Origin: a virus
Direction: 5' to 3' (one strand)
Length of the DNA: 24,060 nt
Virus record (IMG/VR): IMGVR_UViG_3300033074_001684
Span: 1-24,060 of that record
In this document: positions 22,674 through 23,046 of the stretch, piece after piece
Layout of the letters: every line of letters starts with the position of its first letter
How positions within the stretch are numbered: the stretch's first letter is position 1
Made by a program: the position numbers and the translations under genes
The notes under the pieces: model-generated
Told to the model about the DNA's origin: nothing
What the model saw: only the letters and a program-made list of their open reading frames with translations
Database searches by the model: none

Positions 22674-23046
22674 AAAACTTGGTAGCCCCGGAGGGACTTG
22701 AACCCCCGCTACCCTCATCAGGTAGGCCACCGTTTTCGAGACGGGCACATTGCCGCTCTGTCAATCCTCTACACTGAAAAATCCTAACTCCGCACCAGCG
22801 ACCGCTAGAGTCATTGCAACTGACATCACGAAGACGCCATCTAAGTGTGCATGAACATGTTGTATAAGCCACATCCAAATGACAATGTAAATCAAACTTG
22901 CCTTCCCAATAACCGTTATGCACAAAGAAGGAAATCAACTCTTCATTCGGCGTTCCTCTTGGGCTACAGAACAAATCAACTTTTCCATTCGTTCCCAATG
23001 CAAAGAACGGTGCCGTCCACTCTTGTGACACAGATGTAAACGTCAT
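22663..23046 (-). CDS. hypothetical 127-aa Cys-containing protein whose last ~108 nt run through the chimeric tRNA-like element
   Basis: ATG 23046 overlaps the stop of the KOW-Cys paralog B as ATGA. The ORF does not stop until after the tRNA-like sequence. Confidence 0.4.
   Translation of the reverse strand: MTFTSVSQEWTAPFFALGTNGKVDLFCSPRGTPNEELISFFVHNGYWEGKFDLHCHLDVAYTTCSCTLRWRLRDVSCNDSSGRWCGVRIFQCRGLTERQCARLENGGLPDEGSGGSSPSGATKFYEN
22680..22770 (-). pseudogene. chimeric tRNA-like element: 5' two-thirds match tRNA-Ser(CGA) and the 3' acceptor strand matches the type-I tRNAs; the acceptor stem cannot pair
   Basis: The first ~24 nt are identical to the 18595 tRNA-Ser. The anticodon arm CCGT-CTCGAAA-ACGG carries a compensatory A-T to T-A swap relative to CCGA/TCGG. 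The T-arm is GGGGG TTCAAGT CCCTC. The 3' end CGGGGCTACCA pairs only 2/7 with the 5' AGAGGAT. Confidence 0.6.

Follow-up and report, generated by a model that had tools for sequence, protein, structure and literature searches.

The transfer RNA (tRNA) cluster of phage T4 encodes stable small RNAs, species 1 and 2, and it is also where recombination between different tRNA genes reportedly produced hybrid tRNA genes, as McClain and Foss are said to have described in Cell in 1984. Our subject is a chimeric tRNA-like element of 91 nucleotides (nt) in a 24,060-nt JGI metagenome contig (IMG/VR record IMGVR_UViG_3300033074_001684; hereafter the window), in which every gene lies on the minus strand. 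The window phage is uncultured and has T4-type baseplate genes (gp5, gp6, and wedge domains, as identified with Pfam), and ARAGORN locates nine tRNAs among small open reading frames (ORFs): two tRNA-Gly, Ser(CGA), Ser(GGA), Ser(GCT), Leu(TAA), two Leu(CAA), and Leu(TAG). The element consists of two parts, a Ser-type body and a Leu(TAG)-type tail, which are joined inside the T arm. In our view it is probably a non-functional hybrid tRNA gene, a novel joint created when two different tRNA genes of the cluster recombined. A further precedent for exchange at such sites is the T4 homing endonuclease SegB, which recognizes a T-arm motif and cuts tRNA 3' ends, often just after CCAR (PMC2330249).

22680-22770, minus strand: the chimeric tRNA-like element, 91 nt (seen in the sequence; partial match in Rfam; no call by ARAGORN).
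22770-22680, minus strand: its sub-parts, with AGAGGAT at 22770-22764, the anticodon CGA, CGGGGCT at 22690-22684, A73 at 22683, and CCA at 22682-22680.

Read from 22770 to 22680 on the minus strand, the element is AGAGGAT TG ACAG AGCGGCAAT GT G CCCGT CTCGAAA ACGG TGGCCTACCTGATGAGGGTAGC GGGGG TTCAAGT CCCTC CGGGGCT A CCA. The D arm, the anticodon arm (CGA), the long variable arm, and the T arm show no damage, and the conserved loop motifs are present. The variable arm (CTACC/GGTAG) and the T arm (GGGGG/CCCTC, with GGTTCAAGTCC) both form, as had been proposed in a sequence-only reading of the window, and the single non-standard pair in the Rfam alignment is shared with genuine Ser tRNAs. Thus far the element resembles a functional class II tRNA-Ser, but it lacks the 7-bp acceptor helix, a sufficient score or tRNA-finder call, and G73. 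The strands AGAGGAT and CGGGGCT (the latter on the 22690-22680 side) form two of seven pairs, at 1-72 and 2-71 only, in line with the earlier reading. A misplaced 5' boundary would be betrayed by an alternative 5' strand pairing at all seven positions, and none is present within 400 nt upstream. Strands pairing at six of seven positions were rejected because their locations are incompatible with a cloverleaf, and no alternative acceptor strand upstream or downstream fits one. ARAGORN leaves the element uncalled at its default, -ps, and -ps85 (85% threshold) settings, and the Rfam model RF00005 (cmscan) aligns at positions 8-63 only, with 24.0 bits compared with a gathering score of 29 bits.

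We compared the element with five related tRNA clusters, one on a 118-kb IMG/VR contig reached through a KOW-protein scan (L004) and four on JGI contigs (L005-L008). Acceptor strands are complementary in all of the 37 tRNAs tabulated from the window and these relatives, a few stems having one mismatch. G73 is found in 12 of the 13 Ser tRNAs (Ser(GGA) of L004 has T73), whereas Leu tRNAs have A73, and the element shares its A73 with every Leu tRNA in the table. The element alone joins the 5' strand of a Ser tRNA to the 3' strand, the A73, and the AG flank of the Leu type.

22709-22770, minus strand: the Ser-type body, tRNA nt 1-62 (5' acceptor strand, D arm, anticodon arm with CGA, and long variable arm GGCCTACCTGATGAGGGTAGC).
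22675-22707, minus strand: the Leu(TAG)-type tail, also copy 2 of a direct repeat (T arm, 3' acceptor strand, A73, CCA, AG, and three flank bases).
18505-18595, minus strand: an intact tRNA-Ser(CGA), AGAGGAT being paired to ATCCTCT-G-CCA, with the same anticodon and 5' strand as the element.
23628-23713, minus strand: an intact tRNA-Leu(TAG), source or twin of the element's tail (ARAGORN; Rfam 52.2 bits over the full model).

Body and tail differ in their nearest relatives. The body matches Ser(TGA) of L007 at 57 of 62 positions, Ser(TGA) of L008 at 56/62, and the window's own Ser(CGA) at 51/62, and its 21-nt variable arm is identical to the variable arm of the L007 and L008 Ser(TGA) tRNAs. 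From the T arm to CCA (29 nt) the tail agrees with the window Leu(TAG) at 28 positions and with any Ser tRNA at 22 or fewer. When the parents are swapped, the tail scores 21/29 against L007 Ser(TGA) and the body 14/62 against the window Leu(TAG). The switch point lies in a part of the T arm, GGGGGTTCAA(G/T)TCCCTC, that is common to the window Ser(CGA) and Leu(TAG). A recombinant between tRNA genes, as the sequence-only reading had it, is thus what the parts themselves indicate, with some revision of the parents.

The 5' 24 nt of the element, AGAGGATTGACAGAGCGGCAATGT (22770-22747), do equal tRNA-Ser(CGA) 18595-18572 without a difference, and the element is 81% identical to that locus over 83 nt (blastn E = 1.4e-17). 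The body is indeed Ser-type, but the Ser(TGA)-type lineage is closer, so that it is not a copy of the Ser(CGA) gene at 18595. Two of its five differences from L007 Ser(TGA) lie in the 5' acceptor strand and agree with the window Ser(CGA), two make up a compensated pair in the anticodon stem, and one changes the anticodon from T to C. As these differences mostly keep the structure, most of the divergence would predate the loss of the gene's function. The compensatory double change in the anticodon stem that had been pointed out is real: the loop-adjacent pair is A-T in Ser(CGA) and T-A in the element, and it is C-G in Ser(CGA) of L005 and L007. As for the 3' donor, the tRNAs at 23335 and 21647, which had been proposed, share the acceptor strand but that strand only, and the best donor is Leu(TAG) at 23628-23713. 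The flank likewise matches that of Leu(CAA) as described, but in this phage group CCA-AGTTTTATG serves as a generic spacer behind tRNA genes. We also considered a duplicated unit of an ORF plus Ser(CGA) and rejected it: homology to the Ser(CGA) locus ends 3 nt upstream of the tRNA. The strand ATCCTCT-G-CCA of the intact Ser(CGA) probably shows what 3' strand the element lost.

The genomic setting of the element was compared with that of the relatives. The tRNA order common to the window and these clusters is Leu(TAG), Leu(CAA), Leu(TAA), a KOW gene, Ser(GCT), Ser(GGA), and Ser(CGA), and L004 also has a gene for a protein like the major vault protein (MVP) and two Gly tRNAs, next in order as in the window. 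Directly past the element lies a small gene with counterparts in the relatives.

22440-22673, minus strand: a gene for a 77-residue Cys-rich protein, starting 7 nt past CCA (P0005 is 58% identical; tblastn family in L003-L008).

Comparison with P0005 and L004 indicates that this gene probably starts at the ATG at 22673. In L004, L005, L006, L007, and L008 alike, the nearest tRNA upstream of the 77-residue gene family is an intact Leu(TAG). It directly adjoins the family gene in L004, reading CCAAGTTATGAG, and is separated from it by a 64-residue ORF in L007 and by an HNH gene in L005, L006, and L008. The element occupies this site of an intact Leu(TAG), a finding that, together with the discordant parents, upholds the core of the sequence-only reading, a recombinant and probably a pseudogene. 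Neither the chimera nor any other acceptor-less tRNA-like match occurs in the five related clusters (0/5), and the chimera is also absent upstream of the 78-residue homologue in L003.

23623-23655, minus strand: repeat copy 1, inside and just past the intact tRNA-Leu(TAG).
22708-23622, minus strand: the unique interior of a 948-bp block, not in L004 (in silico excision compared with L004 8630-8880).
22663-23046, minus strand: ORF P0001, 127 residues, which crosses the element (predicted JGI protein; open frame 22663-23058).

The tail of the element (22675-22707) and repeat copy 1 (23623-23655) form a 33-nt direct repeat that is 32/33 identical (E = 1.6e-10), with 948 nt from start to start. 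In silico removal of the block and one repeat copy renders the window colinear with L004, in which the empty site runs from Leu(TAG) through CCAAGTT(TT)ATGAG into the 77-residue family gene. The block contains, in order, a 14-nt 3' remnant of an HNH gene, a conserved non-coding stretch, a 'Leu(CAA)' (23335-23411), the KOW1 gene (23043-23327, minus strand), P0001, orphan sequence (∼120 nt without homologues between P0001 and the Ser-type body), and the Ser body. The remnant is the last 14 nt of the HNH gene, fused to Leu(TAG)-CCAAG. Remnant and non-coding stretch are homologous to L007 3540-3650, and the homology of the block spans L007 3540-3822. KOW1 is a diverged paralogue, 70% identical to KOW2, which in turn is 71% identical to the KOW protein of L005. 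With KOW1 and KOW2 no closer than KOW2 and L005 KOW, a recent in-genome tandem duplication was rejected as the sole cause. The divergence of KOW1 and KOW2 therefore marks the block as old or foreign, whereas the joint itself looks young: its 33-nt repeat is nearly perfect (32/33), and so is the cloverleaf core, which suggests a recent event. Pfam detects only the KOW domain within the block. A direct repeat of a tRNA 3' end flanks the insert as at an att site, but an integrative element was rejected, since integrase and recombinase are absent from the block (Pfam; it holds KOW1, the truncated P0001, a tRNA, and short ORFs).

A metagenome contig with repeats in the region of interest could owe such a joint to its assembly, reads of two loci or strains being connected at the T-arm repeat, and 120 nt upstream, at ∼22890, homology does break off sharply a second time. 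We give such an artifact hardly any credence. Sequence common to an intact Ser tRNA and Leu(TAG) could extend over no more than the 17 nt of the T arm, and the k-mers in common use with de Bruijn assemblers are generally longer than that. Moreover, both sides of the 30-nt Leu-type tail are unique in the window, and both copies of the 33-nt repeat are resolved in the contig, each with its own flank.

In the explanation that we favor, a tRNA gene of the Ser(UGA)/Ser(CGA) family would have stood at the end of a ∼0.95-kb block that carried the class-I-shaped 'Leu(CAA)', the KOW-domain gene, and a gene of the 142-residue family. This Ser gene would have recombined, in shared T-arm sequence (GGGGGTTCAA..TCCCTC), with the tRNA-Leu(TAG) preceding the 77-residue gene. 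The product would have retained an intact Leu(TAG) at the left block end and would have acquired, at the right block end, the Ser body followed by a second Leu(TAG) T arm, 3' acceptor strand, A73, CCA, and AG. Because the acceptor strands come from different tRNAs, there is no acceptor helix, and neither RNase P nor the Ser and Leu aminoacyl-tRNA synthetases would therefore be expected to accept the transcript of the element as a normal substrate. We infer that it is probably merely carried along in a polycistronic RNA. A scan for intrinsic-terminator-like structures returned none on the minus strand beside the element, the nearest lying ∼235 nt upstream inside P0001, a result that fits co-transcription of the cluster. 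Since the intact Ser(CGA) at 18505-18595 already provides this anticodon, the element would be redundant and dispensable. As expected of a hybrid gene, we find two differing parents, a switch in shared sequence, and, for one parent, the parental arrangement (in L004). Other scars of rearrangement lie nearby, namely the loss of P0001 homology past codon 52, the 14-nt HNH fusion, and the diverged KOW1.

Several points weigh against this explanation. A parental genome in which an intact Ser tRNA closes the block was not found, and the pathway is a reconstruction, not an observation. The Ser(TGA)-type gene of L007 and L008 is on the upstream and not the downstream side of Leu(TAG). A simple unequal crossover in an L007-like genome therefore gives a different product, and one has to assume a donor with another arrangement or additional steps. 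The cloverleaf core bears no disruptive mutation, with four of the five differences from L007 Ser(TGA) keeping the structure, and ongoing selection would also yield such a pattern. Finally, the chimera is known from one sequence, so that n = 1 for both neutrality and covariation.

Short-patch ectopic gene conversion would lead to an equally non-functional product by another path. An intact Ser gene would already have been present upstream of the 77-residue gene, a double-strand break at its 3' end (made, for example, by a homing endonuclease that targets tRNAs) would have been repaired from Leu(TAG), and ∼20-30 nt would have been overwritten, starting in the T loop and running as far as CCAAG. 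The Leu-type patch covers a short stretch with CCAAG at its end, which may be compared with the frequent SegB cut directly past CCAR (PMC2330249), and HNH genes lie beside tRNAs in the relatives, with an HNH-type ORF ∼160 nt upstream of the window Leu(TAG). There is also a likeness between the bases past the patch (TTTTATG.GAA) and the flank of L007 Ser(TGA), AATTTTATGGGAA, but it amounts to ∼12 nt of generic AT-rich spacer. Conversion would require an extra, unobserved step that places a Ser tRNA between Leu(TAG) and the 77-residue gene, an arrangement that exists in no relative, and the excision result and the L004 flank are more simply accounted for by a tail that is the original 3' end of Leu(TAG), still at its site. 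On balance we think conversion unlikely.

The intact arms invite a functional reading, in which the element would be a maintained tRNA-like RNA that needs no acceptor helix and serves as a decoy for a host nuclease that targets tRNAs, as a signal for 5'-end processing or punctuation of the 77-residue mRNA, or as a stable small RNA comparable to T4 species 1 and 2. Its tail remains 28/29 identical to that of a functional tRNA although KOW1 and KOW2 differ by 30%; start codons in the cluster lie 5-20 nt past CCA, and the tail could still direct 3'-side processing. In addition, the 3' half can form a helix, GGUGGCCU/GGGCUACC, that closes a three-way junction. This helix and two hairpins do appear in the minimum free energy (MFE) structure, but the helix buries the CC of the CCA end, and the MFE of the 91-mer is no better than that of shuffled sequences (z = -0.31; 71/200 shuffles fold equally well), and we rejected the alternative fold. 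A recent origin accounts equally well for intact arms. The absence of the element from the five related clusters and from the region upstream of the L003 homologue also speaks against maintenance, as do pattern scans: exact and degenerate patterns for the element or its Ser body gave 0 matches in IMG/VR, and a pattern covering the chimera and the window Ser(CGA) gave 0 matches in JGI metagenome contigs, a collection without the window's own contig. The suggestion that the element is a tRNA-like RNA with a different function thus finds no support in its distribution or its fold, and we judge it very unlikely.

A shade less probable still, to our mind, is the more specific proposal that selection keeps the chimera as a non-chargeable tRNA mimic, either as a decoy for an anticodon nuclease or a tRNA-modifying defence of the host or as a signal for the release of the 77-residue mRNA, which is nearly leaderless. 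Were this so, the element would combine a core shaped like Ser(CGA) with an acceptor end left unpaired on purpose, its intact arms and unmutated tail would reflect function, not youth, and it would represent a new type of phage tRNA mimic.

Broader searches returned little that is close to the locus. Near-identical DNA was not found among 50,697 phage records, where a search in distant mode matched only the 23335 tRNA. IMG/VR scans anchored on the P0001 N terminus and on the 77-residue family gave nothing, and exact-protein look-ups of the window ORFs found none on record. A KOW1-like protein, P0007 (73% identical), led to the Logan contigs L009-L014, in which the KOW gene is followed by an R2K gene and the chimera is absent.

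That a coding sequence (CDS) reads straight through the element had been noted, and the ORF 22663-23058 does cross it. It is, however, a truncated gene extended by a chance open frame. The homology of P0001 is limited to codons 1-52 (23046-22891), over which P0002 (142 residues; carried on ENA contigs ERZ1426831 and ERZ1426646) is 90% and P0003 (137 residues) 70% identical, and it ends near 22890, the second breakpoint; P0001 has no Pfam match. As the genuine tRNA at 23335-23411 is likewise crossed by a mechanical ORF and the homologues of P0001 cover its N-terminal 52 codons only, we rejected the open frame as significant. A second CDS call, P0004 (92 residues), starts within the element; P0001 and P0004 are both pipeline predictions. 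Small proteins of the cluster are mosaic. The middle of P0002 is similar to the C-terminal half of a 146-residue ORF (20184-20624, minus strand; LPDGEDYEY ... EEDLENQ), but over its first 52 residues P0002 matches P0001.

Other features of the block and of the cluster are recorded here. The conserved non-coding stretch (23528-23618, minus strand), between Leu(TAG) and the short Leu(CAA), has its counterpart at L007 3551-3640 and contains a T-arm-like hairpin, GCGG-GTTCGATGGT-CCGC, the outer pair of which is G-C in the window and A-T in L007; a tRNA remnant and a small RNA are both conceivable identities for the stretch. Two tRNAs called as Leu, CAA at 23335-23411 and TAA at 21647-21727 (both minus strand), are class-I-shaped, with short variable regions and A73, whereas a long variable arm is expected of bacterial-type tRNA-Leu. 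The short pair is kept in four relatives (for instance at L005 3743-3821 and 3828-3904 and at L007 3744-3822 and 3830-3906), and the short Leu(CAA) is 82.6% identical to annotated tRNA-Leu genes of the Erwinia phage phiEa21-4 group.

The layout of the cluster is punctuated by tRNAs, most ORFs starting 5-20 nt past a CCA after an AT-rich spacer such as CCAAGTTTTATG with no obvious Shine-Dalgarno sequence. A 73-residue zinc-ribbon ORF (18584-18806, minus strand) has its TGA stop within nt 8-10 of tRNA-Ser(CGA) 18505-18595. Between Ser(GCT) and Ser(GGA) lies a gene for an FkbM-family methyltransferase (19077-19865, minus strand; Pfam E = 1.5e-13, with a weak TRM5/TYW2 match), which is conserved in L004 (11942-12781). 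Beside the tRNA cluster, an 839-residue MVP-like ORF (15726-18245, minus strand) has major-vault-protein shoulder and repeat domains (Pfam E = 4e-20); it has the same place in L004 (14100-16622) and is 37-38% identical to ORFs of the 462-735 kb uncultured huge phages LR756500/501. In the relatives, HNH genes adjoin tRNA genes at L007 1275-1771 and 3066-3557, L005 3049-3510, and L004 13300-13851. The Ser(CGA) of L004 (13830-13921) is inverted and overlaps the end of an HNH gene; Rfam leaves that tRNA unscored. L007 950-1143 is possibly an interrupted tRNA, in which GAGGCAG ... CTGCCTC-A-CCA surrounds ∼190 nt: ARAGORN, with introns allowed and at 85%, calls a tRNA-Met(CAT) with a 106-nt intervening sequence, and Rfam gives no match.

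Taken together, the element is most likely a further instance of a type of event known from phage T4, not a new RNA. It would then be a natural example of the reshuffling of a phage tRNA array, with little bearing on mechanism. The conserved T arm would act as a short recombination site between non-allelic tRNA genes, and exchange at T arms would add or remove blocks of tRNAs and small ORFs, leaving hybrid pseudogenes at the joints. For annotation, we suggest that the element be flagged as a tRNA pseudogene and that the overlapping CDS calls, P0001 (127 residues) and P0004 (92 residues), be regarded as doubtful.

Compared with a canonical class II tRNA-Ser (RF00005), the element has the D arm, the CUCGAAA anticodon loop, the long variable arm of 5 bp, and the T arm, but it differs in pairing two of seven acceptor positions, in having A73 in place of G73, in its sub-threshold Rfam score, and in the silence of ARAGORN. 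Like attL and attR sites at tRNA 3' ends, a direct repeat from T arm to CCA flanks a block, with an intact tRNA at one end and a partial copy at the other. Here, however, the block is without integrase or recombinase, and the partial copy is fused in register to the body of another tRNA, which points to recombination of tRNA genes, not to site-specific integration. Exchange driven by SegB offers a parallel in that the replaced or duplicated segment spans the T arm to CCAAG and endonuclease genes lie among the tRNAs of the relatives; those genes are of the HNH type as opposed to GIY-YIG, and the block holds a 14-nt 3' remnant only, and a SegB-like cleavage may be linked to the element by analogy. 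The T4 hybrid tRNA genes differ in that they reportedly stem from a simple deletion in a laboratory mutant, whereas here an uncultured phage with T4-like baseplate genes has undergone a gain or duplication (the 948-bp block with its 33-nt repeat), and the acceptor strands of its hybrid are non-complementary, so that it cannot fold as a tRNA. With the T4 hybrid genes the element nevertheless shares its place in a phage tRNA cluster, a joint in sequence common to both parents, and the union of the 5' part of one tRNA with the 3' part of another.

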